A DNA stretch of 64,000 bases from Bacteroidia bacterium (GTDB taxonomy: Bacteria > Bacteroidota > Bacteroidia > Bacteroidales > GWF2-35-48), in the NCBI GenBank assembly GCA_016212695.1, contig JACREX010000210.1, positions 912-64,911 on the forward strand, read 5' to 3'. The notes under the pieces are model-generated. The model was not told where the DNA came from. It worked only from the letters and a program-made list of their open reading frames with translations, and searched no databases. Each line of letters opens with the position of its first letter. Within the stretch, counting starts at the first letter, position 1. Positions 1 through 55,466 of the stretch are shown piece by piece. The translations under genes were made by a program, and so were the position numbers.

Positions 1-752
1 GTTCCTGTGTTATAAAAATGAATGCCAATGGCGATACACTTTGGTCGCATATTTTAGGTGGTTCTTATGGCTATAGTATTATTCAAACATTAGATTCTGG
101 TTATGCAGTAAGTGGAAATGCGTCAAATTTTGGATTAATTTTTAAACTTGATTCTTTGGGCAATTCTCAATGGATTGATACTTTAAATCATATTAACCCG
201 AATAAAATTATATTAAGCACAGATAATTGCCTCATTGCATCAGGGTTTCATTGGATAAGTAGTGATATTAATACATATGATACTTGGTTAATGAAAATTA
301 ATATCTATGGAGATACTTTATGGTCAAAACAATTTGGTGTTGCAGGTCGTGATGAATCTAATTCTTTGGGACAGACTTCTGATAATGGGTTCATTATTAT
401 TGGCCGTAGACCTGAAGGGATGCGTGTTTTAAAAGTTAATGAAAACGGAGATTTGCTTTTGTCTGGTGATCTGAACTATTCCGATTGTCCGCCATTGCTT
501 TATAATTATCCAAACCCTTTTTCAGAGTCAACCACAATTTATTTTAGCAAAAACGAAACGGCAGATATTGAAACATCTGCAAATTTTGATGTTTACAATT
601 CAATGGGATTAAAAATCCTCAGTATAAAAATCTCCTTAAGCAGTTTAGAAAACGGTTATTTATTCAATGCTCACAACCTGCCCCCGGATATCTATTTCTA
701 TAAAATTAATCACAACAATAAAATTTTAACTAATAAAATGATAAAATTATGA
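1..752 (+). CDS. Secreted repeat protein with T9SS (Por) C-terminal sorting domain; 5' end lies outside the window
   Basis: The frame is open back to nt 3. It has repeated K-x-N-x-x-GD-x-LW blocks (beta-propeller-like). The C-terminus YNYPNPFSESTTIYF...DIYFYKI fits the Bacteroidota T9SS CTD pattern. The stop overlaps the next start (ATGA at 749). Confidence 0.6.
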   Translation, partial: SCVIKMNANGDTLWSHILGGSYGYSIIQTLDSGYAVSGNASNFGLIFKLDSLGNSQWIDTLNHINPNKIILSTDNCLIASGFHWISSDINTYDTWLMKINIYGDTLWSKQFGVAGRDESNSLGQTSDNGFIIIGRRPEGMRVLKVNENGDLLLSGDLNYSDCPPLLYNYPNPFSESTTIYFSKNETADIETSANFDVYNSMGLKILSIKISLSSLENGYLFNAHNLPPDIYFYKINHNNKILTNKMIKL

Positions 753-3700
753 AACGATTTTTTATTCTCTCTTTAATATTTCTGTTGCTGTTATCAGCAC
801 ACAAGAATTTTGCCGCATCGGTTTCTCTGCAAACCGCGCAGGCAGTAGCTATAGGTTGGTACACAAATTATGCACCTCCAAAAATAACCGATTACACGGT
901 GCTTAGTTCTCAAACCGTTCAATACAGTGGTATTAATACCTTGTATATTTTCAATTTTAATGCCGGGGGTTTTGTACTAATTTCTGCTGATGACCGTATG
1001 CCGCCCATATACGGCTATTCTTTTACCTACAAAGTTGACACAACCATTAGCGAACATGCTATTGCGTTGATAAACATGTATTCTGAGCGAAGTTATGTTG
1101 ATATAACAAATAATTATACCAACCCCAATGCTTCTACCGATTGGAGCAATGCCATAAATGGTATTTACACCAGGCAGACTCCTGAAAATTCTTTTGCTCC
1201 CTTGCTGGGAACAGCCCATTCATCAAGTTGGGCAACATGGTCACCTTACTTTACTGGTGCGCCAACATATCCGGCAGATCATCCCCTATTAACGTCTAAT
1301 AATCAAGGTTACTTTCCCGGAACTCAGGGCTGTGTACCTTTAGCTATGGCGCAAATAATGCGATACCATAAATTCCCAATTACTGGTTCCGGTAGCCATA
1401 CTGATAATGTTTCAAAAACGTATCTTTCAACAGAAACAAATTTGCCAGTAACTATTTCAGGCAGCTTTTCATGTGATTTTAGCGCTCAAACCTACAACTA
1501 CAACAACATGCCTTATGCGCTTACTTATGTTGCCGACCCTGACCATGGCTTTGATGAATTACCAGGTATCACCCAAGCCCAGAAGGACGAAGCAGGTAAG
1601 CTCACTTATCATGCAGGCATTGCCTGCGATATGCAATGGTGGGGAATTGGTGTTGATGGTTCACATACTCCTCAAAACTGGGCGACAGATTTAGAAACAC
1701 ACTTCAAATATTTACCAAATTGGCAATATATTACTCCAAATGGGGCAACACCTGACGGTTTTAAAGATGCTATTCGTAATGATATAAGAGCAGGCAGGCC
1801 TGTTTTGTTCAGATACAATTCTCATTGCATAGTGATGGATGGATTTGAATTATTAAATTTTTTCCATAAAGTACACGGGGATGGTGGTTTTTTTGATGGG
1901 TATTTCTATTTATTTCCTGCTGATAATGATGGCATACACCAAATTCTCGGCACATCAAATTTACAAGCTGCAATTCATTTAGAGCCCAATCCATGCGAAG
2001 TGAATGCATATTATACACAAGACTATAATTTTTATGGAGGAAGTCTGGTGTTTTGGAACCCGATTAACAGTAAAAGGGGTGTAAATACAATTCATGTTTA
2101 TACTGGCGCTCAGTTAACGATAAATACAGAAGTGTCTTTACTGTCAAATGCACAAATAATTGTTGAAAACGGAGGAATATTAAACTTGGGAAGCAATTGT
2201 AAACTTTATAACACATGTAATGATATTTGGTCAGGCAATCTAACTATAAAGGGTGGCGGAATAGTAAATATTCAAAACGGAGCTCAGATTTATTTGGGCG
2301 GCACAGGTAAAATAATCGTGGAAAGAGTAGGAAAATTAATAATTGATGGAGGGATACTTACATCTACAAGTTCAATGTGGCAGGGCATCGAAGTCTGGGG
2401 CAACCCAAACCTTGTACAGTCTGATGCAAACCAGGGCGTGGTTGAATTAATAAATGCTGCAACAATAGCAAATGCAGTTTGCGGCATATTTGCAGGTAAA
2501 TCAATTATTGATTCAGATGGTAATCCTGCCACAGACCCTGCATTTGCCGGTGGTATCGTTAAAGCAAATGGAGCAAAATTCATCAATAACCAAACCAGTA
2601 TTTCGATAAATAAATTTACTACAAATACAGCATTGAATTTTAGAAGTTATATCAAGTATTGCGAATTTGAATCAAATTCTTTAAATGTTTTTTCTTCGTT
2701 TGTATATCTTAGCGGTATAGATGTTATTAAAATAATCGGTAACACATTTACAAATACGAATTATTCAACCACAAATCCTGTCTCTAATGGTTTTGGTATT
2801 TTATCATTCGATGCGAATTTTAGTGTTTATGCCGGCATAGATAATATTACCGGAAATCCAAAACCAAATAAGTTTGTAAATCTTTTTTGTGGTATTCGTG
2901 CAATGTCTTCAAATGCGATGAAATCCTTCTCAGCGCAAGGATGTGAATTTATAAATATTTCTGCCGGTATTTTTAGTACAGGAGTTAATTATGCAAGAAT
3001 AAAGTCAAATATATTTGATATTGGTTTACCTTATGAGTTTTTTTCTATGCAAAATCCTGGTATGGGATTATATTATCGGGGTACAGGTTTTACAATCGAA
3101 GATAACGAATTTTCATCCACGCATAACGGCGCTATTGGTTGTATCTTTTCAGGAACAGGTTCAACTTCCAATGTGATTTACAGGAATAGATTTCAAAATA
3201 TAGGAGTTGGGATACAGGCGCAAAAACTTTCAAACACTGTTTCAAACAGCGGTTTGCAAATCAAATGCAACAAATATATTTCCGACATGACGTATGCTGA
3301 TGTTGCGGTAGCATCAGGCGCAATAGGAAACCCGCAGGGCTTATGCGGCTCAATGACAACAACGGCAAATAATTTATTCAGTCATACCTCAAACGGTGTT
3401 CATAAAGATATTTGGGTGAATCCTGATGTAAATCCAATTATATATAGATATTATCAGGTAGGCCCTCAATCGTATACTCAGGGAAAAGTAATGCCATGGG
3501 ATTGCGCAAATGTCCATCTTCCGGCTTTTGACTATAATACAGCCTGCCCATCCACTTTAGGAACAAGTCCTAACCCTACTAATTTAATCACACGCATCGC
3601 AACCAGCAACCAGCAACTAACAATTCTTTCTTCTACAATAGACGGCGGCAACACTCAAAACCTTTTAAACAAAATTTACTCCAACATGTCGCCCGGTAAT

Positions 3701-4324
3701 CTTAAAAATGCCCTGCTTGCGCCCGGCCCTTATCTGACAGACACAGTGCTGATAGCAACCATCAAACGGCCAAGCTCGTTGCCTCCCGGGATACTCAAAA
3801 ATATTATTGTTCCCAACAGCCCCGTTACCGCCAAAGTAATGACAGCCTTAAACACCGTGAACCTGCCAGCCGGAATAAAAGCCGATATACAGGCAGTACA
3901 AACCGGCACATCCGCAAGAGCAATTTTAGAACAGCAGATTTCCGAATTAAAACAGGAAAAAGATTTTAGCGTTTCAGAACTCATGCGTTATTATCTGAAC
4001 GATTCCATTATAAAAATTGACAGCACAATACTTTTCCTCAAAACTCAAACAGATTTAGATTCAAAGAAACAACTTGTACAAGCATATTTATTGAAAAACG
4101 ATTGCAGCAATGCCTCCACAACATTAAATACCTTACCGCAACAAACCGCTGATGATATTGCTTTCAAACAATTCTACTCCATCATGACAACCCTCTGCAC
4201 ACAAAACAAAACCCTGTTTGAACTCACCCCTGCACAGTTGCAAACCATCACTTCAATTGCTGCCTCAACCACTTACAGCAGCAACAACAGATTTACAAGG
4301 CTATTTCAGATTCAAGTTCAATGA
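749..4324 (+). CDS. Peptidase C10 (streptopain/PrtT-like cysteine protease) with signal peptide, Spi-type propeptide and a long beta-helix-like region
   Basis: Signal peptide MKRFFILSLIFLLLLSAHKNFA. Catalytic Cys block GCVPLAMAQIMRYHKFP and His block SHCIVMDGF match C10 peptidases. There is no sorting domain before the stop. Confidence 0.75.
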   Translation: MKRFFILSLIFLLLLSAHKNFAASVSLQTAQAVAIGWYTNYAPPKITDYTVLSSQTVQYSGINTLYIFNFNAGGFVLISADDRMPPIYGYSFTYKVDTTISEHAIALINMYSERSYVDITNNYTNPNASTDWSNAINGIYTRQTPENSFAPLLGTAHSSSWATWSPYFTGAPTYPADHPLLTSNNQGYFPGTQGCVPLAMAQIMRYHKFPITGSGSHTDNVSKTYLSTETNLPVTISGSFSCDFSAQTYNYNNMPYALTYVADPDHGFDELPGITQAQKDEAGKLTYHAGIACDMQWWGIGVDGSHTPQNWATDLETHFKYLPNWQYITPNGATPDGFKDAIRNDIRAGRPVLFRYNSHCIVMDGFELLNFFHKVHGDGGFFDGYFYLFPADNDGIHQILGTSNLQAAIHLEPNPCEVNAYYTQDYNFYGGSLVFWNPINSKRGVNTIHVYTGAQLTINTEVSLLSNAQIIVENGGILNLGSNCKLYNTCNDIWSGNLTIKGGGIVNIQNGAQIYLGGTGKIIVERVGKLIIDGGILTSTSSMWQGIEVWGNPNLVQSDANQGVVELINAATIANAVCGIFAGKSIIDSDGNPATDPAFAGGIVKANGAKFINNQTSISINKFTTNTALNFRSYIKYCEFESNSLNVFSSFVYLSGIDVIKIIGNTFTNTNYSTTNPVSNGFGILSFDANFSVYAGIDNITGNPKPNKFVNLFCGIRAMSSNAMKSFSAQGCEFINISAGIFSTGVNYARIKSNIFDIGLPYEFFSMQNPGMGLYYRGTGFTIEDNEFSSTHNGAIGCIFSGTGSTSNVIYRNRFQNIGVGIQAQKLSNTVSNSGLQIKCNKYISDMTYADVAVASGAIGNPQGLCGSMTTTANNLFSHTSNGVHKDIWVNPDVNPIIYRYYQVGPQSYTQGKVMPWDCANVHLPAFDYNTACPSTLGTSPNPTNLITRIATSNQQLTILSSTIDGGNTQNLLNKIYSNMSPGNLKNALLAPGPYLTDTVLIATIKRPSSLPPGILKNIIVPNSPVTAKVMTALNTVNLPAGIKADIQAVQTGTSARAILEQQISELKQEKDFSVSELMRYYLNDSIIKIDSTILFLKTQTDLDSKKQLVQAYLLKNDCSNASTTLNTLPQQTADDIAFKQFYSIMTTLCTQNKTLFELTPAQLQTITSIAASTTYSSNNRFTRLFQIQVQ

Positions 4325-6707
4325 TTTGATTTTCCTTGACCAAAACGCAAAATACACCTTCGGCATCAAATCAGGTTCAGTTATTCCCCCTTCTCAAGGG
4401 GGAACACAAGGGGGTTCAGAGGGGGTTGTTCAAGATACCATTTTCAAAACCATCGAGCAATGGATTTCTGTAAGCCCGGTAACCCTCACGCTGAAAAAAC
4501 TCACGGCAGGTTTTATCAATGATACCGTTCAATGCTACAACGACACCGTTCATTTCACCAACAAAACCCTGTATGGCAAAACACCTTATACCTACAACTG
4601 GTCATTTGGCGATGGCGGTTTTCTTCCCCCTTCTCAAGGGGGAACACAAGGGGGTTTTGTCAGTCATAAATTCCCCTCCTCCGGTATCTTCCCCGTCACC
4701 CTAATCGCCACTGATGCTCTGGGTTGCAAAGACACTACAATAAAGCAAATTATCATTCCCGAATGCCCCGGTATTTATGGCTATCTTAGCGAGCATGCCG
4801 AATGCGGCGGTTCCCCTGTTATCGGTGATACTCTCTATTTTGTTGATGAATTCGGAAATACTTACGATACTATTTTTGCTGTTACTAATACCACAGGCCA
4901 GTTTACTTTTAATATGTCAAAAGTAAACCAGCTTGACACAACCTATAATTATTCCTTTAAGATTAAAAGCGGTTACGGAATATCACAGATACAATGCAAC
5001 CCAATTAGTTACTGGAAAAATTCATCGCCGCTTTCTTTCATAACCGATCATAAAGAATATTGGACAAGAGATTTTAATATATCCGACAGCGCAATATGTT
5101 CCAATAGTATCATAGACTTAGACCGTAATATTTATGTTGCAGGCACAGCATATTATCCCGGCACAAAACGCGATTATATGCTTATTAAATACAACCCTGT
5201 CGGCGATGAACTCTGGCATATCTCTTACAACCCGACTGGTTTCGGCGATTATACATTAACCGATATGAAAGCCGACAAATCCGGTAACATCATTCTCACA
5301 GGCAAAGGCGATGATGGCGCTGTTACAGCTAAAATTAATACGTCCGGTTCAATAGTTTGGTCAAACACATGGACAGACGATTATTATTTTGGGAGTTCCG
5401 GTTATCTTGCTATTGATACGCTGAATAATATTTACGTCGCTTCTAATGTACTTGACCCTTCCAATCAGTTCTATTTCGCATTAACCAAGTATAATAGCAG
5501 TGGTGAAAAACTTTGGAGCAATGTATATAATACCACATCTATGGTTGTTCGGAATATTATAATAGATAAACTGGGAAATGTAATTGTGTTATGCAACCAG
5601 TCAGTTGATGGAAGTTATATTTTCAAAAATAATTCATCTGGCGTTTTACTTTGGTCTGTGGTTAATTCAAGTAATCTTTTAAAAGCTACTGTCGGAAATG
5701 ACAATTCGGTTTATGCCACTGGTTCGACGATTACGACTAATAACTGGACAGCAATTATTACCGTAAAATATACATCCGCAGGTAGCTCAGAATGGACACA
5801 AACCTATAATTATGAATCTTCACACGTAAATCAATCTGATAATATTCTTGTAGATAAAGACGGCAATATTATTGTTGGTGGTATTGTTACATATTATTCA
5901 ACACAAGGCACAAATGTATATCTTTTACCCAATCGCTATTCAATTATAAAATATAATCCGTCTGGTTCTCAAATCTGGCTAAACTCATTTAGTTTGAATT
6001 CCACGGCAGAAGTTGTTTCACCTCTTTTATCTATGGTGTCAGATATTGCAGGAAATATCTACACAGCGGGTACAAAACAATTTATAGTTACGCTGCCAAG
6101 AACTGGAACTAAGAAAATTTATAATCAGTTCCTCACTGCTAAATTTAATAGCGAAGGTTCATTTGAATGGCTCGAATCCGTTAATACAAACCGGGCTGAT
6201 TACTCTTACCCGCCTGATTTAATTGTAAGCGATAATGAAAATATTTATGTAACCGGAATAACAACCCTTAATGGAGTATATACAATTAAATACGTACAAT
6301 GTCCCTCAAATGCAAATAATGCACGCTATTCACATGCCGGTGATAATACTAATAACTCAACCACAAACGAACAATCGAACAATGAACAATTGAACAACAA
6401 ACACCAAACTTCAAACTCAAAACTTCAAACCTCAAACGAGTTTGTTACAATGTTCCCCAACCCCAACGACGGCAATTTTTATTTCAATTATAATATCCTT
6501 CCCCCTTCTCAAGGGGGAACACAAGGGGGTTCATGCCGCTTTGCTGTATTCGACCAAATCGGGAAGAAAATTTACGATATAGAAATAAAATCCGGCAAAA
6601 ACACAGTCATGATTAATCATAACAATTTCAGCAACGGAGTTTATTACTATCAGGTAACAGCCGGAAACCGTTTAGTTAAAACCGAAAGGCTTGTAATCAC
6701 AAAATAA
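4218..6707 (+). CDS. PKD domain + SBBP-type beta-propeller repeats + T9SS C-terminal sorting domain; probably the frameshifted C-terminal continuation of the C10 protease ORF (true start unclear)
   Basis: No signal peptide at the ORF-track start. PKD signature YNWSFGDG...H..P..G.FPVTLIATD. Many Y.AG/..KYN..G..LW repeats. C-terminal FPNPNDGNFYF...YYYQV...LVITK CTD. It overlaps the upstream ORF by 107 nt in the +1 frame. Confidence 0.6.
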   Translation: MNSPLHSCKPSLQLLPQPLTAATTDLQGYFRFKFNDLIFLDQNAKYTFGIKSGSVIPPSQGGTQGGSEGVVQDTIFKTIEQWISVSPVTLTLKKLTAGFINDTVQCYNDTVHFTNKTLYGKTPYTYNWSFGDGGFLPPSQGGTQGGFVSHKFPSSGIFPVTLIATDALGCKDTTIKQIIIPECPGIYGYLSEHAECGGSPVIGDTLYFVDEFGNTYDTIFAVTNTTGQFTFNMSKVNQLDTTYNYSFKIKSGYGISQIQCNPISYWKNSSPLSFITDHKEYWTRDFNISDSAICSNSIIDLDRNIYVAGTAYYPGTKRDYMLIKYNPVGDELWHISYNPTGFGDYTLTDMKADKSGNIILTGKGDDGAVTAKINTSGSIVWSNTWTDDYYFGSSGYLAIDTLNNIYVASNVLDPSNQFYFALTKYNSSGEKLWSNVYNTTSMVVRNIIIDKLGNVIVLCNQSVDGSYIFKNNSSGVLLWSVVNSSNLLKATVGNDNSVYATGSTITTNNWTAIITVKYTSAGSSEWTQTYNYESSHVNQSDNILVDKDGNIIVGGIVTYYSTQGTNVYLLPNRYSIIKYNPSGSQIWLNSFSLNSTAEVVSPLLSMVSDIAGNIYTAGTKQFIVTLPRTGTKKIYNQFLTAKFNSEGSFEWLESVNTNRADYSYPPDLIVSDNENIYVTGITTLNGVYTIKYVQCPSNANNARYSHAGDNTNNSTTNEQSNNEQLNNKHQTSNSKLQTSNEFVTMFPNPNDGNFYFNYNILPPSQGGTQGGSCRFAVFDQIGKKIYDIEIKSGKNTVMINHNNFSNGVYYYQVTAGNRLVKTERLVITK
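4384..4416 (+). repeat. 33-nt palindromic element, copy 1 (TTCCCCCTTCTCAAGGGGGAACACAAGGGGGTT), in frame, encodes PPSQGGTQGG
   Basis: Exact string match to the copies at 4624 and 6499. CCCCCTT can pair with either of two AAGGGGG arms. Confidence 0.9.
4624..4656 (+). repeat. 33-nt palindromic element, copy 2, inside the GDG...H loop of the PKD domain
   Basis: Exact 33-nt identity with copies 1 and 3, in the same codon phase. The flanks are unrelated. Confidence 0.9.
6499..6531 (+). repeat. 33-nt palindromic element, copy 3, inside the T9SS C-terminal domain
   Basis: Exact 33-nt identity with copies 1 and 2, in the same codon phase. The flanks are unrelated. Confidence 0.9.
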
Positions 6708-6856: not shown

Positions 6857-6869
6857 TATCGAAAACTTG

Positions 6870-7142
6870 ACCGCTAGCATAAGAAACATAACCTATAGCA
6901 TGATTAATACGTCCAATAGAATGGAAAACACGACCAATAGCATGAAAAACCTGGCCAATAGCATCAAAAACACGACCCCTGGCATGAATAACATAACCGC
7001 TGGAGCGAATAACATAACTGCCCGCATGAGTAATATATCTGCTAGCATGAAAAACACGACTGCTAGCATGAAAAACACGACTGTTAGCATAAAAAATACA
7101 ACCGGTAGCATAAATAACACGACCGCTGGCATGGTAAATCCA
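6870..7142 (+). repeat. Tandem array of 13 x 21 bp (consensus ACCGCTAGCATGAAAAACACG); open in the + frame as a T-A-S-M-K-N-T heptad
   Basis: The units were read out one by one with no spacers. ORF 6867-7172 (+) and ORF 6893-7132 (-) are both open across the array. Confidence 0.9.
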
Positions 7143-7176
7143 AAATCACTAATCCTAAATCCTAAATTTTAAAAAT

Positions 7177-8610: not shown

Positions 8611-11600
8611 ATGAGTGCAGGAATTAACAGAATTATTCTATTTATAACCATATTGATTTTTTATAATTTATCGGCATCCTCACAGACCACCGTGATGTCA
8701 GAGAATTTTGAGCATGGAGGCGCGCTTCCAAGCGGCTGGACCAATCAATTTGTAAGCGGATCTGTTAATTGGATATGCGCAACAGGGGGTAGCGCCTCCC
8801 ATCCGGCTGCAGCGCATAACGGCGCATACAATGGCCTTTTTTATTCTGCAAATTACAATGGCAATAAAACAAAACTTATTACTTCCGCTATCAACCTCGG
8901 AAGTTATTCTTACTGTGTCCTCGATTTTTACCACGCGCAGGTAAACTGGGCCGGCGATTGCGATACCCTGAAAGTGTATTATAAAACTTCTGCGGGCGGA
9001 GCCTGGACTTTGATACAGACATTTTCCGGGCAGGTGATAGACTGGAAACACAGAACCATTGTTTTACCCAATCCGTCGGCAACCTATTATCTGGGCTTTG
9101 AGGGAATTTCCGATTACGGTTACGGCGTTTGCATTGACGATGTAATTGTTACAGGATATCCGACTTATCTGTTAAATTCCGCGAACAATAATACTACGGT
9201 AACTACTTGCGGCGCTATTGTTTTTGACAGCGGCGGCCCGGGCGGTAATTATGCAAATTCAGAAAGCTATACAATGACTTTTACTTCCAACAATGGCGGA
9301 TGTATCAGGGCTGTATTGCAATATTACAATACTGAAATGAATTATGATTTTTTATATTTTTATGACGGAACATCAACCGCTGCGCCGCAGATCGGAGAAA
9401 CTGTTCATGCAAGCCCCGGAGAAATCGTTTCTACAATTGATAAAACAGGGAATGCATATTACGCATTATCCGGCTCAATAACTATTAAATTTACTTCCGA
9501 TAATCTCACGGTTGACGCCGGTTTTAAATTAAAGATTGATTGTCCTGAAAATTGCGTGGCGCCTTCCTGCACCGGCACTATTCCTGCTGCCGATAATTGT
9601 GAATCCACAACCTCTATCTGTGATTTCAACGGGTATTGCGGCAGCACGGATTCTATTATTTATACAACAGATCACGACGAGATCGATTCGTATCATTCGG
9701 GAATTTTCTGCGGCGGAATCAATAATAATTCATGGCTTTCATTTGTTGCAGAATCCAATGAAGCCGTATTGGATGTGTGGGTGTCTGATTGCCAGGGCAG
9801 TTTTTATGGCACGGTAAAAGGCATACAACTCGAGGTTTTTGATACGGACTGCAACACTTTTATCGCCAAATCTAACTGCTGGAGCCCCAGTGAACAGATA
9901 AACGGGCAGATTACCGCTACCGGTTTGATACCCGGCCACACGTATCTTTTAATGATTGACGGGTATGCAAAAGACAATTGCAAATACGTGTTTGCAGCCA
10001 GCCAGGGCCTGCTTGTTGCAGATGCGGGAAAAGATCAGACTATCTGCGAAGGCGACTGGGTTCAGTTGGTTGCATCGGGCGGTACGAGTGTTACATGGTC
10101 TGCCAGCCCTTCTGATCCGGGTTTGGCAGGACAGGAAAATGATTTTACGATCTGGGTTTCTCCGTCGCAGACTACAACCTATACCGCTACCGTAACAGGC
10201 AGCAATCCTGCCTGTCCGGGCAATGCGGATGTTACCGTATATGTGGATGCCGCCAATGCAAGTTTTACCGGGCTTGCCCCTTCTTATTGCATAAACGGGT
10301 CATCGGCAACGCTTACCGGAAACTATGCGCCGAACGGAATATTCAGCGGCGCCGGAGTAACCGGAACAACATTCAATCCTTCAAGCGCAGGAGCGGGAAC
10401 CCATGATGTGACCTATACCTTCGACTATCAGGTGGTAACCAAATTTGAAGATGATTTTGATCCGGCTCCGGTTGCCGGATGGACACATGGCGCCACAGGT
10501 ACAGACTCATGGGCAACAGGAAAACCAAAAGGAGGCAATGGGAGCAACAGCAATCCGAATTCAAATAAAGATCCATTAATTGATCATACTTCAAATACAG
10601 ATAACAACGTGTATGGCCAGGGTTTGTCTGCAGGAACGGGAAACGGTGTTGGCGGATATAACAATAGTTCGACCGAATGGCTGAAAACGCCTGTTATTGA
10701 TTGCTCTACTATCAGAAATTCAACACTGAGTTTCTGGAGGTATGCCAATTTTGAACCAAGCTACGATGAGGCGTATGTTAAAATCAGCACCGACGGAACA
10801 ACATGGACAACATTGCCTGAGCCTGATTATCCACAGGATAATCACTGGACGCAACGGATCATTAATATTTCCCAATGGGCTGACGGACATTCAACCGTTT
10901 ATATCCGATGGATCAGTGTAAGCGATGGCAGCCAGACATATTCCGGATGGAACATTGATGATGTGAGAATCACAGGAGTGCAATACCAGATTAGCGGATT
11001 GTGTACAAGCACCGATGTTCAATCTACTATTGTTTATCCGATGAGTGTAGCCGGAACGGCCAGTACGCCTCCACCCATATGCGCGGGAAGCGCTGCAACT
11101 ATTTCGTTAACCGGGTATACCGGAAGTATCCAGTGGCAGCAATCACCCAATGGAACATCCGGTTGGGCCAATGTAACAGGCGGTTCCGGTTCTACAAGCG
11201 CTTCCTATACAACAGCGGCTCTTACCACAACCACTTATTACAGGGCTGTAATAACAAGCGGAGCGGGTTGTACTTCTGCAAATTCAACAACCGTTTCCGT
11301 AACGGTTACACCGCAAAGCGTCGGCGGTACTGCCACGGCAACGAACAATACGCTTTGCTATAATACATCTACAACCCTGAGCCTTACAGGTTCATCGGGA
11401 AATATCCAGTGGCAGCAATCGCCCGACGGTTCCACTTGGAGCGATATTCCCGGCGCCACCTCTTCCACATACACAACATCAAATCTTACAGCAACAACGT
11501 ATTTTAGAGCTGTACTCTCAAGCGCAGGCTGCACGCCGGCTTATTCAAATACAATAGTTATTACAGTTTATCCGAACCTCACTCCGGGAACCATAGCCGC

Positions 11601-14600
11601 TAATCAAACCCTTTGTGCAAATGCAACGCCTGCCGGTTTAACCCAGATTACAGCGCCTGCAGGAGGAACCGGAAGTTACACCTATCAATGGCAATCGTCA
11701 ACAGATAATATCAACTGGTATAATATTACAGGAGCTACTAACAGTAACTATAGTCCTCCGCAGCTTGCAATCACCACTTATTACAGGAGGAATGTAACTT
11801 CCGGTGGTTGCGGTACTGTAAATTCGAATACGGTTACCATCACAGTCAATGCAAATCCTGTTGCTGAAGCCGGCAATAATGCTACAATACCTAATGGAAC
11901 CAATACTGCATTGAATGGTTCCGCCTCAGGGGGAACAGGTAATTATTCTTACAACTGGTCTCCGGCAGGCCTGCTGCAAAATCCCAATGTGCAAAATCCC
12001 CAGACTGTAAACCTGTCATCAACTACCGTATATACATTAACTGTTACGGATATCAACTCAGGCTGTACGGGAACAGATCAGGTTACCGTATATATTACCG
12101 GCGGGCCTCTGAGCATTATTGCAACAGCAACGGATTATTCAATCTGTAAGGGAACCCAGGCGCTGCTTCATGCTGTGGGCAGCGGTGGAAATCCTGCCGG
12201 ATATCAATATACATGGACTTCTAATTCTTCATCATTCACTTCAGGTTCTGCAAATCCTGCGGATTACCCCACTGTAAATACTATTTATACTGTTGTGCTT
12301 TTTGACGGATCAAATACGGTTTCTGATACAGTTACTGTAACAGTTTATACATTGCCGGTGGCCGAAGCAGGGAACAATGCATCCATTTGCAACGGAATAT
12401 CCACTACGCTTAGCGGCTCTGGTAGCAGCGGTTTTCCAACTCTAACTTATACCTGGAGCAACGGGCTTGGTTCGGGAATGACACAGACTGTTACACCCAC
12501 ATCAACTACCACATATACTCTTACAGTAACGGATGGCCATGGCTGCACACAAACCGACCAGGTTACCGTTACAGTTAATGCGCTTCCGGCACAATTCACT
12601 GTATCCGGGGGCGGCGCCTATTGCGCCGGAGGAACCGGTGTAACCATTAATTTATCAGGCTCTGAAATCGGGGTGAATTATCAGCTTCAGTTAAACGGCG
12701 TCAATACAGGAATTGCCGTTGCAGGAACGGGTGCAGCGATCTCATGGAACAACCAGTCTGCAGCCGGAGCCTATACCGTTGTTGCTACCAATGCCTCCAC
12801 GCCATGCACCATCAATATGCTTTTAAGCGCGACTATTACTGTGAATCCTGCTCCAGGCCCGCAGATATATGGAGATGTGGATGCATGCCAGGGAGAAATG
12901 TTAAATTATTATACCACAAATATTGCAGGCCATTCTTATAGCTGGACAATCACCGGCGGAACACCTGCAACCTCTGTTTCAAGTTCCGTGGATATAACCT
13001 GGGGAAATATCAGCCCGGGAATGATCACCCTCACAGAAACGATTGATGCGACGGGCTGCTCGGCTACAACAAACAGTTTTGCCGTTATTATTCATTCCGC
13101 TCCTGTGGCAGATGCAGGAAGCAATGACACGATCTGTTATGGCGGTTCTGTTGTGCTGAGCGCTGCGAACAGCACGGGAAGCGCGCCGTTGGGATACGCG
13201 TGGAATAATGGCCTGGGGTCGGGTGTTTCACATACCGTGACTCCGAATGTTCCCACTACATATATTGTAACCGTCACTGATAATTACGGATGCACAGCTA
13301 CGGACCAGGTTACAATCTTAGTTAACCCGATGCCTGTGGTTGATGCCGGAAACAATGTTTCAATCTGTTCGGGAAATTCTGCAACCATTGTTGCAACTCC
13401 GGTAAGCGGTACTCTCCCGTTCACATATACCTGGGATAACGGGCTGGGAAGCGGAATATCTCATAATGTATCACCAACTGTCACCACGATGTATCATGTT
13501 TCGGTTGTTGATGCCAAACAATGCACGGGTATAGATTCTGTAATCGTTATCGTATATCCTTCTCCGGTAGCCAATGCCGGTGCTGACGACACAATCTGCA
13601 AAGGAGAAAATATTTCTGTGGATGCATCTTCAAGTTCAGGCGTTCAACCCTTAACGTATTCATGGAATAATAACTTAGGCAGCGGCGCTGTGCATACCGT
13701 GAGCCCTGTTGTAACCACATTTTATTATCTGACCGTAACGGATGCAAATTTGTGTTATGATTTTGATACCATAATAATATCTGTGAATCCTTTGCCGGTT
13801 GCCGAGGCCGGAGCAGACAGCATTATCTGTTCCGGTAGTTCAACTGTGATCGATGCAACTGGAAGCACAGGCTTAACTCCTTTAACGTATCACTGGAATA
13901 ATGTTGCCATTGATTCGCTGGCGACACAGAATGTAACGCCTGAAGTTACAACAACATTTACCGTAACCGTGACAGATATCAATGGATGTTCCAAATCCGA
14001 CAGTGTTAAAATAACGGTTGCTGCAAACCCGGTTGCCAATGCGGGGCAGGATGTTTCTGTTTGCAGGGGTACGGCTGTTTCGCTTGATGCATCAGGAAGT
14101 TCCGGAACCGCTCCGTTGAATTATTTATGGAATAATTCCTTAGGTAGCGGATCAACACATTCCATTACGCCGGATTCCAGCAAGACATACATTGTTACAG
14201 TTAGCGATGCCGTGAATTGTTCGGATATTGATACGGTTATAGTAACTGTAAAAGCGGTTCCTGCCTTTTCAATTCAGTCAACTAATACTACCTGTACCGG
14301 GAATAAAGATGGAACGGCAACGATAGTGATTATAAGCGCAACACAGCCTGTTTTATATATATGGTCAACAGGAGAAACTGTATCAAACTTAGTTAATCTT
14401 GGCGCAGGAAATTATAGCATAACCGTTACCGACAGCACCGGATGTCAGAAAGTAAGTTCGGTTGAGATCAAGGATGCCGTGGATGTTTCGTGTATTGAAA
14501 TACCTTCTGCTTTTACTCCCAATGGCGACGGCAAAAATGACAAATGGGAGATCCGGCATATTGATTTGTATCCGGAAGCGCAGGTAGAAATTTATAACCG

Positions 14601-16565: not shown

Positions 16566-17276
16566 TTATTTTTTCTGATCCATCATTTTTACCAATGATT
16601 CCAGATCCTTGGCAATCACTACTCCGGGAAGTTTCACAGGCGCTCCAACCTGGGCATAAAATGAACCCTGCACTTCTCCGACTTTGTAAGTTGTGAAACC
16701 GATTCTGTACAAACCAACCACAAGAGCCTTTAACGGGTTACTTATTTCGCTGGTGATACGCAATACAGAATTGTATTTATTGCCTGAAGGCTGTTTGGGA
16801 AGCTCGCTGCTGTCGTCATTCTGACCATAACTGTTCCAGTTGCAACTTTTTCCTTTAGCAAGAATGTCTTCTTTCTTAAAGATTCCTTCAGCTCTTTCAA
16901 AAGAAATCCATGTGTCGAAAAAATTCTTTTTATCTGCTTTTCCACCTTCCCATGCAGGAGAAACAAATGAAGCTTTGCCCGGAGTTAATGAAGTAACCGG
17001 AGAAACCATCCTAATACCGATTTCAGGAGCAACAACAGGAATCCAAACATATAAGTAATAGTACTTTTTCCCGTTTTTGGTTTCATCACCAGGTTCGCCG
17101 GGTTTTACATAACCGAAATAATCAATAACATCCGTGTAAGGAATTCTGACATCTCCGATTACAGGGTAATGTTTTTTCTTGAAGTCCATTCCGAATTTTT
17201 TCAATTTTTGTGCATTCGCATTAAAGCAAAATGCGACAACCAGCATCAATGCTACGATTCTTGCAATGTTTTTCAT
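16566..17276 (-). CDS. LipL32-family surface protein homolog
   Basis: Signal peptide present. Blocks recalled from Leptospira LipL32 match: [38 protein letters not shown] vs YYGYVKPGQ...[35 protein letters not shown] vs [19 protein letters not shown] and [19 protein letters not shown] vs GLYRISFTTYKPGEVKGSF. Confidence 0.75.
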   Translation of the reverse strand: [236 protein letters not shown]

Positions 17277-31762: not shown

Positions 31763-34498
31763 TCAAATGGCAATTTTATTGTCGTACAAATAGGGTTGGA
31801 AGCCAATAAATGTATTTCTGATTGAAGTAATATCGCCAAGTTCCTTTTTAGCATCAGTAATCGCACTATATTTTAATTCAAGCAGATTTGGTAACTTTTC
31901 ATCGTCTAATTCTTCAACACCTGAATTGACATATTGTTTTAAAACAAAATCAAGAAATATCTGTTGTTTTGAATCGTAATTATTAAAATGAATCTTTACT
32001 TTTTCTGCTCTTGCTGACCTTTCGAGCGGAATAGAACTGAAAGCAACATAAGCCAAAACGTCGAATAAATCGCTTTTTTCTGCATGAATCATTTTTTGTA
32101 GATCATTCAACTGGCTTTTTGAAATCCCTTTTTCGTTCAATTCTACAAGCAATTTTTTTCTTGTATCTGGCTTGCTCCAAATTTTCCGTAATTCATCTTC
32201 GTTCTTGAAAAATTCGGGAAGCGTACCAAATAGATTTTGTAAAAATTCTTCGGCGGAAATAGGCTTGCCATCAGGACTCCAAAATGAAGTTTTTACGATA
32301 TGCTGAAACTCTCTAACTTTACCATCGGGTAATTTAACTTTTATCATCTTTTTGGGTGAGTCTGATTCTTCAACGGTTTTACCGGGATCAACAGGATCGG
32401 AATACGGTTTCGGATTTTTTACGGTTGGCATTTCCGGTTCTAATGGTTCTCCGTCCCATTCAGGATCGCTGAAATTATAATGTGCTTTTACGAAGTCGTA
32501 AATTGTAAAATAATCTTTGCCGTCGTAAAGACGAGTACCACGACCAATGATTTGTTTAAACTCAATTAATTGTTTGACCGGACGAAGCAAAACAATATTT
32601 TTTACTTCCGGCGTATCAACGCCTGTACTTAATTTTTGAGAAGTAGTAAGAATGGTCGGTATAATTTTTTCGTTGTCTTGAAATTCGCTCAAATGTTGCT
32701 CGCCAAGTTTGCCATCGTCTGCTGTTACCCTATGGCAATAATTCGGATTTTTACTATCGGCAAACTGGTTTACCAAATCCCTGATTGCAAGGGCATGAAG
32801 CTGAGAGGCACAAAAAACCAGAGTTTTTTCATCCTGATTTATCATGCCCATAAATAATTTTACCCTGTATTCTTCACGCTGACGAATTTCGATTACCCGG
32901 TTCATGTCTTCTTCGGTGTAGCGTTTTCCTTCTTCGATTTCGCCTTCAATAACGGTATCGTCTGAGGTGTAAATATATTCGTCAATAGTTGTGTCAATTT
33001 GCCTGACTTTGAACGGCGTTAAAAAACCATCGTTGATGCCTTGTTTTAAAGAATAAATATAAACGGGTTCGCCAAAATATTTGTATGTATCAATGTTCTG
33101 TTTTCTCTTTGGAGTTGCTGTTAAACCTAACTGAACGGCAGGGCTGAAATATTCCATAATATCACGCCATGCGCTTTCGTCGTTTGCTCCTCCTCTGTGG
33201 CATTCGTCAATAATGATGAAGTCGAAAAAGTCGGGCGGATACTCGCCAAAATATGGTTCGACAAGCTCACCATAATATGGTTCTGTAAGCTCACCAACCT
33301 TTGGCTCTTGTTTAGATTTGTTTTTTGCTAGCTTTTTTAAAAGGTCAAAATCTTTTTTTATTAATGCAATTTTCTTTGCCCTGCTCCATTTTTGAACTTG
33401 TTTTTCTCTATCAAAAGCAAAGTCTATTCTGTCAAATGTTTCGAAGTAAACTAATTTTAATGGCAGATTATTTCTTGTAAACTCTGCCCCTTCGCCATTT
33501 TTATGTTGTTCTAACCTCAATTTTAAATTTTTTGTGCTACCTATATAAAAACTTCCATTTGAACATTCCAAAATATACATGTATCCATTTGCATTTTTGA
33601 TATGTTTTATTTCATCAAATTCTATATTGGAATAATCCTCCGAATTTTGGGTGGTGGGTGAGCTTGTCGAACCCCCACACATGAAAGTTTGAAATATGGT
33701 GAAAAATATATTCCCGTTTGTCGGTACTTTCCCTTTCTTCTTAATATCGGCAGGATTTATACGAACCAATGCATCTTCTGCAAAAGCAGCATATTCATTG
33801 AATTTGCCGAGCGCCTGATTTGCAAGTGTATTTCTGTCTGCCAGAAAAAGTATTCTTGGGCTACGGCTCCAATCGTTTTTTAAATTCCATTTGCTTTTAA
33901 AAAGTTTCCATGATATTTGAAAGGCAATATCAGTTTTTCCCGTGCCTGTAGCCAATGTTAAAAGAATACGATTTTTATTATTTGCAACTGCTTTTATAAC
34001 ATTAGAAACAGCAATTTCCTGATAATATCGGGGTGGTTTTGTGCCCCCTTTTGTTTCGTAAGGAATATTTAAAATGGTATCACAAAAACTTACTACGGAT
34101 TTGATTTCATTATCAAAGGTCATTTCCCAAAGCTCGTCAGGCGTAGGATATGCGACAACATCGCTTTCTTTGCCTTCGAGCATGTCTATGCAATAAATCT
34201 GCAAACCATTGGTGCTATATGTGAAACGAACCTGTAATTTTCCGGTATAATCTTTTGCCTGTGCAACTCCTTCGGTGTAATAGCTGTCTCGTTTTTTTGC
34301 TTCGATAACCGCTAAATTCCGATTGCGATATTGCAACACATAATCGGCTTTTTCCGGAACGCCACGCTGGCCATGACCGAGCAAACGACCTTTGGAAATA
34401 GGAAATTCCCTGCGGATTCGACTGCCTTCCACAACGCCCCATCCTGCTAATTTTAATGATGGGTCAATATATTCGGCTCTGGTTTAGGATTCGTTCAT
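31763..34498 (-). pseudogene. hsdR: Type I restriction enzyme R subunit (HsdR) with an in-frame GIY-YIG insertion; in-frame TAA at codon 5
   Basis: The upstream minus strand reads ATG AAC GAA TCC TAA ACC AGA GCC GAA TAT ATT GAC = MNES*TRAEYID, a canonical HsdR N-terminus. The ORF track restarts at GTG 34432. PD-(D/E)xK ADYVL...AVIEAKK, helicase motifs ATGTGKT and IIIDECHRGG, and QIIGRGTR are present. Confidence 0.75.
33338..33586 (-). other. GIY-YIG nuclease domain embedded between helicase motifs I/Ia and II of HsdR
   Basis: GYMYILECSNGSFYIGSTKNLKLRLEQHKNGEGAEFTRNNLPLKLVYFETFDRIDFAFDREKQVQKWSRAKK shows the GIY / YIG / R / E / N pattern of small UPF0213-type GIY-YIG proteins. Confidence 0.75.
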
Positions 34499-40912: not shown

Positions 40913-42005
40913 CTATATTGAGTTCCCGTATTCCATCAGAAAAGCCTTGATAAAGTCGTTCAGTTCGCCGTCGAGTACAGCCTGGGCATTACCTACTTCA
41001 TAGTTTGTGCGGATATCTTTCACTAATTTATACGGTTGCAGAATATAGTTCCTGATCTGTGATCCCCATTCGATTTTTTTCTTCTGGCTCTCGAGTGTGC
41101 TCATGGTCTCCCGGCGCTTTTGAAGTTCAATCTCGTAAAGTTGCGCTTTTAATAAACGCAACGCATTGTCCCTGTTTTGCAACTGCGATCTCGACTCCTG
41201 GTTTTCGATTACGATTCCTGTGGGGACATGGTGCAGCCGGACTGCGGTTTCTACTTTGTTCACATTCTGTCCGCCCGGTCCGCTGGAGCGGAATGTGTCC
41301 CATTCAATTTCTGCCTGATTTATTAGGATATTTATATTATCGTCAACAATCGGATAAGTAAAAACAGAAGCAAAGGATGTCTGTCTTTTACCTTGCGCAT
41401 TGAACGGGGAAATTCGCACTAACCGGTGAACGCCTGTTTCGCTTTTCAAGTAACCATAAGCATAGTCGCCGGTAAATTCGAGGGTTACTGATTTGAACCC
41501 GGCTTCTTCGCCGACTAATGAATCTAATTCCTGTACTTTGTAATTATTTTTTTCTCCCCAGCGCAGGTACATTCTCATCAGCATCTCTACCCAGTCGTGG
41601 CTTTCAGTACCGCCGGCGCCCGCATTGATCTTAAGTATGGCTCCGAGTATATCTTCCTCTTTGCCGAGCATGTTCTTCAACTCAACATCTTCAACGGTTT
41701 TTAAAGTCTGTTGATATTGCTTGTCCACTTCTTCTTCTGTGGCTTCTCCTTCTTTTGCAAAATCGAAAAGCACCTGCAGGTCTTCAACAGATGATTTTGC
41801 TTTGTTGTACAATTCGATCCAGTTTTTTAATACCGAATTTTTTTTAAGCTGTTTTTCTGCTTCTGCCGGGTTGTTCCAGAAATCAGGGCGTTGTGTCTTT
41901 AATTCTTCAACTTTGAGGGTCTCTGTTTTAGTATCAATGTCAAAGATACCTCCTCAGCGCTTCTGCGCGTTTAATAAGGTCTTTCAGGTGGTCGGTAGTT
42001 ATCAT
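40913..42005 (-). CDS. prfB: Peptide chain release factor 2, with programmed +1 frameshift
   Basis: Frame 0: ATG at 42005, [21 protein letters not shown], then TGA. The +1 frame continues [15 protein letters not shown]... into ORF 40913-41812. SPF and GGQ ([10 protein letters not shown]) motifs are present. Confidence 0.9.
41939..41954 (-). promoter_or_regulatory. RF2 autoregulatory frameshift site AGGAGG TAT CTT TGA C
   Basis: The minus strand shows an SD-like AGGAGG three nt before the slippery CTT TGA C. Frame arithmetic was checked against both ORF parts. Confidence 0.9.
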
Positions 42006-42343: not shown

Positions 42344-47383
<5,040 letters not shown>

Positions 47384-53865: not shown

Positions 53866-53979
53866 AATGAATTACCAGATTTGTTCAAAATGTATAAAAA
53901 ATGTTTGCATACAAACCTTGAAAATGCCCAATGGCTCGAAGACAGATTAGTAAATATTCCAAGTAGTGTAAGAATATGA
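53866..53979 (+). pseudogene. Orphan 3' end (last ~37 codons) of a DegT-type aminotransferase gene; copy R1 of a three-copy repeat
   Basis: Reads NELPDLFKMYKKCLHTNLENAQWLEDRLVNIPSSVRI*. Positions 53890-53979 align without gaps to 62270-62359 with about 6-7 mismatches in 90 nt, by eye. It keeps the same ATGA stop/start overlap. Confidence 0.8.
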
Positions 53980-55409: not shown

Positions 55410-55466
55410 AATGCACAATGGCTCGAAGACAGATTAATAAATATTCCGAGTAGCGTGAGAATATAA
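55410..55466 (+). repeat. Copy R2 of the aminotransferase 3'-end repeat (NAQWLEDRLINIPSSVRI*)
   Basis: Starts right after the AlbA_2 gene stop, in frame with it. It has 3 mismatches to 62303-62359, and the terminal ATGA has changed to ATAA. Confidence 0.85.

Follow-up and report, generated by a model that had tools for sequence, protein, structure and literature searches.

Three identical in-frame copies of a G/C-rich repeat with the architecture of an intrastrand triplex motif in one surface-protein gene of a Bacteroidia bacterium

Introduction

What kind of unit is a 33-nucleotide (nt) string that stands three times, identically and in frame, in a single bacterial gene: a peptide kept by selection or a piece of DNA that has been copied? 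The question was raised by a 64,000-nt stretch from a Bacteroidia bacterium (contig JACREX010000210.1 of assembly GCA_016212695.1, positions 912 to 64,911 of the forward strand; hereafter the window), in which the unit TTCCCCCTTCTCAAGGGGGAACACAAGGGGGTT occurs on the + strand at 4384-4416, 4624-4656 and 6499-6531 within the open reading frame (ORF) 4218-6707, the 3' part of a gene for a cargo protein of the type IX secretion system (T9SS). The reading favored here, to which we assign a probability of roughly 70%, is that the unit represents a G/C-rich intrastrand-triplex-motif repeat (class II), copied at the DNA level into three positions of the gene and persisting there as a tolerated selfish or neutral insertion. 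Bacterial intrastrand triplex motifs, known under the names BoxC, potential intrastrand triplex (PIT) elements and triplex motifs (TM), have been recognized since 2000; those of E. coli were described as strictly intergenic, and the function and the mode of spread of such motifs were left without explanation. The window provides a clean case of a recently copied motif of this kind: three identical units, missing from the nearest orthologue, with the coding frame unbroken.

The repeated unit and its three copies

The exact triple occurrence reported in the original prediction was reproduced: there were zero mismatches among the copies, all three shared a single codon phase (offset 1 mod 3 in ORF 4218-6707) and each was translated as PPSQGGTQGG (residues 57-66, 137-146 and 762-771 of this ORF). 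No further copy was found in the window on either strand with up to 3 mismatches, zero being expected from shuffled sequences; that the 33-mer was not seen elsewhere had been noted before from the letters alone. The flanks, previously described as unrelated, were so indeed: similarity between the copies stopped 1-3 nt beyond the 33-mer, and the stretches shared pairwise were 33, 34 and 35 nt long.

The unit has a 9-3-9-3-9 layout, with three 9-nt arms and two 3-nt spacers in the order pyrimidine arm TTCCCCCTT, CTC, purine arm AAGGGGGAA, CAC and third arm AAGGGGGTT; this is the + strand, i.e., the non-template strand of the host gene. Five of the six reading frames of the element are free of stop codons. 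The window has a G+C content of about 38% and runs of five G or five C are scarce in it: seven of its 18 runs of at least five G belong to the three copies and to the extension of copy 1. The copies, with the two ORFs concerned, are located as follows.

4384-4416, + strand: copy 1, arms 4384-4392 (TTCCCCCTT), 4396-4404 (AAGGGGGAA) and 4408-4416 (AAGGGGGTT, third, reverse-Hoogsteen-type arm)
4393-4395 and 4405-4407, + strand: loops of copy 1, CTC and CAC; copy 1 encodes residues 57-66 of ORF 4218-6707
4417-4430, + strand: extension of copy 1, CAGAGGGGGTTGTT, with one further G5 arm
4624-4656, + strand: copy 2, arms 4624-4632, 4636-4644 and 4648-4656; encodes residues 137-146, within the PKD domain's GDG...H loop
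6499-6531, + strand: copy 3, arms 6499-6507, 6511-6519 and 6523-6531; encodes residues 762-771, in the T9SS C-terminal sorting domain, where they belong to the loop that joins strands 1 and 2
4218-6707, + strand: host ORF, 829 amino acids (aa), with a PKD domain at 101-176 (Pfam), an SBBP-type beta-propeller region and Por_Secre_tail at 745-827 (Pfam)
749-4324, + strand: upstream overlapping ORF, 1191 aa, with a Spi inhibitor and a C10 peptidase domain (Pfam); its stop codon is at 4322-4324

Insertion sites and host gene

The only close relative in the protein database was P0002, a partial "C10 family peptidase" from a Bacteroidia metagenome-assembled genome, and it was compared with the window at the protein level. 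This orthologue check, which had been proposed together with the prediction, gave a clear outcome at the first site: P0002, 65% identical to the first 217 residues of ORF 4218-6707, was without the insert. It reads ...SGEVI-QDTIFK..., and the window reads ...SGSVI-PPSQGGTQGGSEGVV-QDTIFK..., leaving in P0002 a clean gap of 15 residues that corresponds to 4386-4430 of the window (45 nt, 15 codons), i.e., to the element with its 14-nt extension. At site 2 the two proteins have unrelated loops, GDSPVYVSHPSSVVSHKF in P0002 versus GDGGFLPPSQGGTQGGFVSHKF in the window, that of P0002 being 4 aa shorter; site 3 is outside the coverage of the partial protein. DNA-level copying into three positions follows from the identical nucleotides of the copies combined with an orthologue that lacks the element.

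The structural context of copies 2 and 3 had been predicted correctly. According to Pfam and a recount, copy 2 lies in the GDG...H loop of the PKD domain, with 16 residues versus 9 in both PKD domains of ORF 43946-47383. Copy 3 follows the first strand of the T9SS C-terminal domain and stands between strands 1 and 2 of Por_Secre_tail, in a loop that was the longest among 8 aligned domains, by 7-8 residues. AlphaFold placed copy 2 between strands 125-130 and 147-151, with a predicted local distance difference test (pLDDT) score below 50 at residues 140-142. Copy 3 was flanked by strands 753-760 and 773-778 in the model, and there the score fell below 50 at residues 765-770. The part of the prediction that put the copies into loops between beta-strands was thus upheld, but a pure insertion appears demonstrable at site 1 only: after subtraction of 11 codons, the loops at sites 2 and 3 would be about 4 residues shorter than in the relatives.

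The metagenome-type source of the contig, together with the fact that 33 nt is a common k-mer size, raised the question of an assembly or sequencing artefact. The shared lengths of 33, 34 and 35 nt correspond to no fixed k, however, the protein domain continues on both sides of each copy, the flanks of sites 1 and 2 align with the orthologue, the reading frame is kept, and members of the same family are also present in isolate genomes. An artefactual origin is hardly credible on this evidence.

The assignment of the host to T9SS cargo was supported by its Por_Secre_tail, but the ORF does not represent the complete gene: in P0002 the counterparts of ORF 749-4324 (62% identity over 1,200 residues) and of ORF 4218-6707 form one protein, of which the former is the N-terminal part. 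Compared to P0002 (residues ~1191-1252), the window is short of some 55-65 codons and changes frame near 4289; this deletion with frameshift is situated about 95 nt upstream of copy 1. In our reading, the missing codons would correspond to the first half of a carboxypeptidase-regulatory-like domain, of which the start of ORF 4218-6707, without a Pfam match in this part, is probably the remnant. This ORF has no signal peptide of its own, and its residues 1-93 were left unmodelled by AlphaFold, which fits a truncated domain. Barring a sequencing error, the T9SS cargo gene is probably split or recently inactivated. The T9SS, CHU_C and SprB-type genes are encoded in the window (Pfam), and the nearest homologues of its Kup transporter were 71-75% identical, those with a source name coming from Bacteroidia or Bacteroidota.

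Directly 3' of the host gene, a 21-nt tandem array of 12.6 copies with 73% identity was observed at 6870-7133 (ORF 6867-7172). It encodes a heptapeptide repeat (..NTT.SMK..) in a 101-aa ORF with a weak MCPsignal match only.

Predicted three-arm fold

The element had been described as a palindrome with two alternative hairpins. The C-rich arm and the two G-rich arms were recognized correctly in this description, but the structure was incomplete, the full layout being that of a class II triplex motif. The first two arms are exact complements and form a 9-bp hairpin, computed with ViennaRNA (which models the hairpin only) at -8.6 kcal/mol for DNA (z = -2.2) and -13.6 kcal/mol for RNA. The third arm is the mirror of the second one, with T replacing A at the last two positions. 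In antiparallel purine-motif triple helices the third strand obeys a mirror symmetry, with G opposite G-C and either A or T opposite A-T pairs; all nine base triplets of the element are of the allowed types (T.AT twice, G.GC five times and A.AT twice). The order of domains, i.e., pyrimidine at the 5' side, its Watson-Crick purine complement and, on the 3' side, a reverse-Hoogsteen domain, is that of class II, and the stem and loop lengths are within the limits both of the ITxF program (stem 6-15, loops 1-6) and of the E. coli repeat TMECO (9-nt stems, loops 3-6 and 3). An ITxF-like scan of the window (stems of at least 8, at most 1 mismatch, loops 1-6, classes I and II, both strands) returned the three copies only, all of them class II, with 0.2 matches in shuffled sequences. 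By its architecture the element is an intrastrand triplex motif of class II (purine motif), rich in G/C, with a predicted fold.

Hairpins with asymmetric arms, of the type C(b)xC(a)...G(a)xG(b) with unequal a and b, distinguish a mirrored from a directly repeated third arm, and this property was not selected by the search pattern with which related loci (see below) were fetched. Among all the fetched loci the third arm was mirrored in 23 unique cases and direct in none, with 5 more being near-mirror. By our count, the 23 cases represent about 8-9 independent lineages, including Pseudanabaena/Nostoc, Spirochaetes, several Nitrospirota, Stahlbacteria, Uhrbacteria and the metagenomic contig L137.

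Other structural assignments were considered and dropped. An intramolecular G-quadruplex is not expected, the 33-mer holding only two G5 runs; some relatives with interrupted G-arms carry four G-runs. The Rfam scan of the window matched no family, and ten related loci matched only HEARO RNA, which is unrelated. A 12-nt tandem repeat AATGGGGGATTA (5.2 copies, 55167-55228), which encodes NGGL five times in the linker of a Schlafen AlbA_2 / HATPase_c_4 protein (ORF 53976-55409), has the same 12-nt G5 periodicity. It has no pyrimidine arm and was not called by the triplex scan, and it was set aside as a separate linker repeat.

Related elements in other genomes

GTDB genomes were searched with the degenerate pattern CCCCCTT-N3-AAGGGGG-N5-AAGGGGG, which has 21 specified bases and, by our estimate, is expected less than once by chance in the 596 Gb searched. 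More than 119 loci in many phyla were found, those among the matches listed including Cyanobacteria (Pseudanabaena, Microcystis, Nostoc, Scytonema and others), Nitrospirota, Planctomycetota, Cloacimonadota, WOR-3, Elusimicrobia, groups of the candidate phyla radiation (CPR) and others. The narrower pattern TTCCCCCTT-N3-AAGGGGGAA-VNN-AAGGGGGT was present in 26 metagenome contigs, and seven viral contigs had matches. The closest variants agreed with the element in all three arms and in the CAC spacer but differed in the first loop: ACT in contig L137, GGA in L140 and ACC in L150. The latter belongs to a viral collection, but PHROGs gave almost no annotation for it, so that a phage vehicle is without evidence. 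BLAST of the 33-mer against plasmids and phages produced one copy on a Pseudanabaena plasmid, of a related type with TGC and TTA loops, and otherwise chance partial matches.

Two cyanobacterial genera had more elaborate arrangements. In Pseudanabaena (L005, L016, L021, L034, L039, about 20 other loci and the plasmid NZ_CP112875.1) a conserved composite repeat of about 100 nt joins a CCCTCCCC/GGGGAGGG unit to a TTCCCCCTT-TGC-AAGGGGGAA-TTA-AAGGGGGT unit, whose second loop TTA is that of the E. coli TMECO type A. In Microcystis (L003, L017, L057, L109) the triplex-type units either make up long tandem arrays, the period being 37 nt, or precede runs of a 12-nt AAGGGGGGATAA-type repeat.

Related elements inside genes

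Location within a gene was not restricted to the window. Open frames of at least 200 codons hold 40 of the 123 GTDB matches, among the matches listed, and in long ORFs the family members occur in several reading frames and in both orientations. Nine element-bearing ORFs were scanned with Pfam and each proved to be a Pfam-supported gene; the element was inside or between the domain matches in six of them and beyond these, toward one end, in the remaining three.

L025: polyketide synthase, with copies in the ketosynthase-acyltransferase (KS-AT) linker and in the acyltransferase-dehydratase (AT-DH) linker, in opposite orientations
L006 and L024: Ser/Thr-kinase/AAA_16 proteins, element inside or between Pfam matches
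L028: type ISP restriction enzyme, element inside or between Pfam matches
L122: UPF0020 methyltransferase, element inside or between Pfam matches
L112: element between two His_Phos_1 stretches
L072: C-terminus of MutS, element outside the domain matches
L127: a second methyltransferase, element in the N-terminal part, outside the domain matches
L041: C-terminal extension of an alanine racemase, which may be non-coding, element outside the domain matches

The homologous kinases L024, L066 and L118 have the insert at the same site, in either orientation. Several copies within one gene, as in the window, were found in L012, L025 and L137.

In the contig L137 (Ga0180433_10006827) the element lies within a 426-aa UPF0020-type methyltransferase gene in another frame, where it is read as FPLTKGEHKGV; this occurrence in another frame of an unrelated gene shows that the unit of inheritance is the DNA. 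Similar G/C hairpins or triplex-type units are present in frame inside its PolA, YchF and UPF0020 methyltransferase genes, twice in the last one. Judging by its gene content and 37% GC, L137 probably comes from a small-genome bacterium. Beside polA it has a 225-aa ORF with motifs like those of the tyrosine transposases associated with repetitive extragenic palindromic (REP) sequences (RAYT), with a Y1_Tnp match of 20 bits, below the cut-off, and with a tandem repeat of about 16-17 aa in about three copies. The coordinates of the units and of the RAYT-like ORF in L137 are 6959-6980, 12540-12611, 13840-14049 and 9576-10253.

These observations bear on the view that selection at the protein level maintains PPSQGGTQGG as a functional peptide module, for instance as a linker or as a site of processing or modification. 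The peptide is flexible and hydrophilic, and the phase and orientation common to the copies would coincide by chance in about 1 of 25 cases among five open frames (our estimate). Yet there are zero synonymous differences among the copies, the orthologue P0002 is without PPSQGGTQGG, the host gene appears disrupted, and elsewhere the same DNA is translated as other peptides, such as FPLTKGEHKGV, SPLPRGNARG and NPL.FPL.KGE; the peptide view is close to refuted. The earlier proposal of a nucleotide-level element instead of a peptide motif is borne out by the gap at site 1 and the unrelated loop at site 2 of P0002 and by the variant of L137 in the other frame: as far as the compared sequences can tell, the element is a DNA-level repeat and not a conserved peptide.

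Origin and spread of the element

The favored explanation can be put as a sequence of steps. In single-stranded DNA the first two arms are computed to form the 9-bp hairpin, and the third arm would fold back into its major groove with the triplets given above, as judged from the sequence rules and from the TMECO experiments in vitro. In the host mRNA the hairpin alone is expected, and purine-motif triplexes are not formed in RNA (PMC4666352). The element would have been copied as DNA into three positions of one large, fast-evolving surface-protein gene and would persist there by virtue of its open frames and of a flexible Pro/Gly/Ser/Thr/Gln loop landing between beta-strands. With five of six frames stop-free, a flexible loop encoded in the frame used here and a placement between strands, the element is most likely not a functional peptide but an insertion, selfish or neutral, that the protein tolerates. 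Our best guess for the copying itself is repair or template switching from another copy, provoked by the structure; an unlinked enzyme may instead have transposed it. That the copies have phase and orientation in common may reflect either selection for the mildest translation or local copying. As a side effect, the element might cause local instability by analogy with the TMECO loci, and the deletion with frameshift upstream of copy 1 may be related to it: the deletion would fit the reported instability of triplex motifs, as a correlation of one.

Several observations weigh against this explanation. The remaining 62 kb of the window has no copy of the element, and since all three copies are gathered in a single gene, local copying accounts for them better than a genome-wide spread. 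The exact 29-nt core had zero matches in the JGI metagenome collection, no such hairpin was found in about 47 kb from the nearest sampled Bacteroidia relatives, and none of the 119 GTDB loci among the matches listed is labeled as Bacteroidota. The arms of the element are themselves mirror-symmetric, so that a mirrored and a direct third arm both fit, as does a plain hairpin with a G-run. In the fetched loci the third-arm base was G opposite G-C pairs in 1339 of 1366 cases, and opposite A-T pairs it was A in 321, T in 310, C in 32 and G in 23, but these counts are inflated, the loci having been fetched with a pattern that demands three arms. Finally, a stable TMECO triplex was not found in vivo, and TMECO itself is always intergenic in E. 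coli MG1655 and not tied to transposons, phages or plasmids (PMC4666352).

Some of the same facts would be expected if the motif had a single origin in the host gene and never left it, its copies being due to intragenic gene conversion or to template switching mediated by microhomology, without its being a dispersed repeat. The copies lie within 2.1 kb, an arrangement with a chance of about 0.0015 by our estimate, (2.5/64)^2, orientation and phase are common to all of them, the exact core is confined to this gene in the collections just named, and GGTT-based microhomology is present at two junctions. Against such a purely local origin, identical arms and the second loop recur in the unrelated L137, L140 and L150, and an independent origin of 27-30 bases is not credible; moreover, several copies per gene, as in L012, L025 and L137, seem to be a habit of the family. 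The original prediction had taken absence of the 33-mer from all other sequences as a sign of recent duplication within the gene, and this was borne out by half, the exact core being absent from the JGI collection but near-identical variants existing. Confinement to the host gene is accordingly regarded as improbable.

The junctions themselves carry short direct repeats at two of the copies.

4374-4380 and again 4413-4419, + strand: GGTTCAG at copy 1, the second occurrence across the 3' junction of the element
4617-4622 and again 4653-4658, + strand: GGTTTT at copy 2, the second occurrence likewise across the 3' junction

The probability of such repeats by chance is 0.009 per site for copy 1 and 0.027 for copy 2. 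No junction direct repeat was found at copy 3, and the wider family of related loci had no general junction-repeat signal. The repeats may represent microhomology or a trace of target duplication, with uncertain significance. Target-site duplication was set aside: the repeats at copies 1 and 2 look significant, but the wider family is without them. As a pointer to the mode of copying, the repeats hint at microhomology-guided template switching.

The remaining alternative was an ordinary REP-like hairpin that travels in single-stranded form, mobilized by a REP-associated tyrosine (Y1/HUH) transposase whose gene is elsewhere in the genome, with the third arm being incidental or a recognition tag. 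In-frame intragenic REPs of 20-40 bp are documented (PMC3733652), the 6-7-nt repeats flanking copies 1 and 2 could be insertion traces, and L137 combines the closest variant and several G/C hairpins in genes with the RAYT-like 225-aa ORF and its weak Y1_Tnp match. Other observations speak against it. The GTAG or CGTC tag was beside none of the three copies, whose flanks are GTTA/CAGA, TTTC/TTGT and ATCC/CATG, which sets the element apart from the tagged REPs. No transposase was present among the Pfam-scanned window ORFs of at least 150 aa, tblastn with the RAYT-like protein of L137 gave no other copy in about 150 loci and the window, and the part of the upstream flank of its gene that was read had no G/C hairpin. 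Furthermore, hairpin recognition alone leaves the mirror symmetry of the third arm across families unexplained, and the junction repeats are not a property of the family. Movement as a REP-like hairpin is therefore considered unlikely, and the copied triplex-motif repeat is retained as the favored explanation.

A wider generalization can be offered only tentatively and is, in our opinion, doubtful: that the G5/C5 triplex-type motifs constitute one cross-phylum family of very small mobile elements, whose three-arm single-strand fold serves as the copying signal (for a structure-specific enzyme or for fork-stalling template switching) and whose in-frame insertion into genes, including core genes such as polA, mutS and ychF in small-genome bacteria, is routine. 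If true, bacterial proteins would gain surface loops and suffer local deletions by a general route that has so far gone unrecognized, and the window, with three identical copies and an adjacent deletion, would be a fresh instance of it.

Significance and other features of the window

The fetched loci suggest that what is seen in the window also occurs in many phyla and in well-known enzymes. If this holds up, the mode of copying of the triplex motifs becomes a testable question. So does the fate within genes of a DNA structure at which polymerases stall in vitro: it may be tolerated there, or even exploited as a source of new loops and of local deletions. For annotation, the repeat accounts for the recurrent Pro/Gly-rich inserts of the types PPxxGGxxGG, SPLxKGG and FPLxKGE in conserved proteins.

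Four other features of the window are recorded here in their own right.

53890-53979, 55377-55466 and 62270-62359: a 90-nt repeat with 72-93% identity, which is the 3' end of the DegT-type aminotransferase gene 61217-62359; the two remnant copies bracket the AlbA_2 gene, as if this gene had been inserted with duplication of the end of the aminotransferase gene
31763-34432, - strand: type I restriction HsdR-like protein with a GIY-YIG nuclease domain (283-354) between the ResIII and the SWI2/SNF2 helicase parts
16566-17276, - strand: strong match (2e-75) to LipL32, a surface lipoprotein family named after Spirochaetales
40913-41812, - strand: release-factor ORF matching PCRF only from profile position 44; the N-terminal part presumably lies in a different frame, given the programmed frameshift that is usual for prfB

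Comparison with known repeat systems

The most similar system is the one of the intrastrand triplex motifs, which are divided into four classes, class II having the pyrimidine domain 5', then the purine and then the reverse-Hoogsteen domain 3' (Holder et al., 2015; PMC4666352). The TMECO repeat of this class is, according to the same paper, what was called BoxC in the 1990s and later a "potential intrastrand triplex (PIT) element" (Hoyne, Maher et al., 2000, via PMC4666352). Its pattern, CCCTCNCCC-N3-6-GGGNGAGGG-N3-GGGNGAGGG, consists of a 9-nt C-rich stem and two 9-nt G-rich stems, and its isolated strand folds in vitro into a triplex of high stability, as followed by circular dichroism and nuclear magnetic resonance (PMC4666352). 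Deletions and rearrangements at the TMECO loci exceed those of controls, especially within 500 nt, and triplex motifs rich in G/C occur in great abundance in Microcystis, Anabaena and Nostoc (PMC4666352). The TMECO "A mm" sequences of Table 1 of the same paper (GGGGAGAGGG ... GGGTGAGGGG) are, in our reading, mirror repeats too.

The window element shares with TMECO/BoxC/PIT the class II domain order, the 9-nt stems and the loop lengths (3-6 nt for the first, 3 nt for the second), and its family shares the dominance of G.GC triplets, A or T opposite A-T pairs, loops less conserved than stems, near-identical units in multiple copies and abundance in Cyanobacteria. Deletions nearby are a further common feature. 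In the window, the multiple copies amount to three within a single gene; dispersal is seen for the variants, in the genomes of other organisms. The differences are in the arm sequences, CCCTCNCCC/GGGNGAGGG in TMECO versus TTCCCCCTT/AAGGGGGAA here, and in the location, which is intergenic for TMECO in E. coli MG1655, whereas all window copies are in coding sequence and in frame. With a different arm sequence and intragenic copies the element was not placed in the TMECO sequence family, the architecture being all that is common. Its host belongs to Bacteroidia, and neither Bacteroidetes nor coding or in-frame locations are mentioned in PMC4666352; the absence from the orthologue adds evidence of recent copying. 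The original statement, that no described equivalent in Bacteroidota was known, needs to be qualified by the bacterial triplex-motif class, which is known (PMC4666352), although not in coding sequence and not in Bacteroidota.

Rickettsia palindromic elements (RPE) had been named as the closest analogue. They are inserted in frame into functional protein genes, with the encoded peptide at the protein surface, as far as this is related in the sources through which they are cited (Ogata et al., 2000, via PMC3733652 and PMC3184786), and palindromic repeats in frame within protein genes are what they have in common with the window element. In the same accounts they are mostly of about 100-150 bp, confined to Rickettsia and described without a triplex-type third arm, and the element, with 33 nt and a Bacteroidia host, was set apart from them by length and host. 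They are not the sole analogue: GTAG- and CGTC-tagged REPs are also short in-frame palindromic repeats (20-40 bp) inside genes, sometimes twice per ORF (Di Nocera et al., 2013; PMC3733652). The intragenic REPs, which have been argued to occupy tolerant linkers and loops (PMC3733652), resemble the window element in size, in the G/C-rich hairpin and in the preserved frame; the element differs by the missing GTAG/CGTC tag and by its third, mirror arm.

Assignment to miniature inverted-repeat transposable elements (50-500 bp, with terminal inverted repeats and target-site duplications of fixed length) was rejected on account of the 33-nt length and of the flank repeats, which vary both in length (7, 6 and 0 nt) and in offset and are absent from the wider family. 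A possible resemblance of another kind is to the small dispersed, hairpin-containing repeats of 21-27 nt reportedly described by Elhai and colleagues in 2008 for heterocystous cyanobacteria (Nostocales only), which are said to be mobile-like and to lie within conserved sequences and for which no triplex architecture is known to have been claimed. The G+C clusters of yeast mitochondria, short G/C-rich palindromes against an A/T-rich background, some of which can occupy in-frame positions within the coding gene var1, are organellar and have no sequence relation to the element, making this a resemblance only. Compared to all these systems, the element of the window belongs to a known kind of repeat; what is new is its sequence family and, even more so, where it is found, i.e., inside a gene, in frame, several times per gene and in Bacteroidia.

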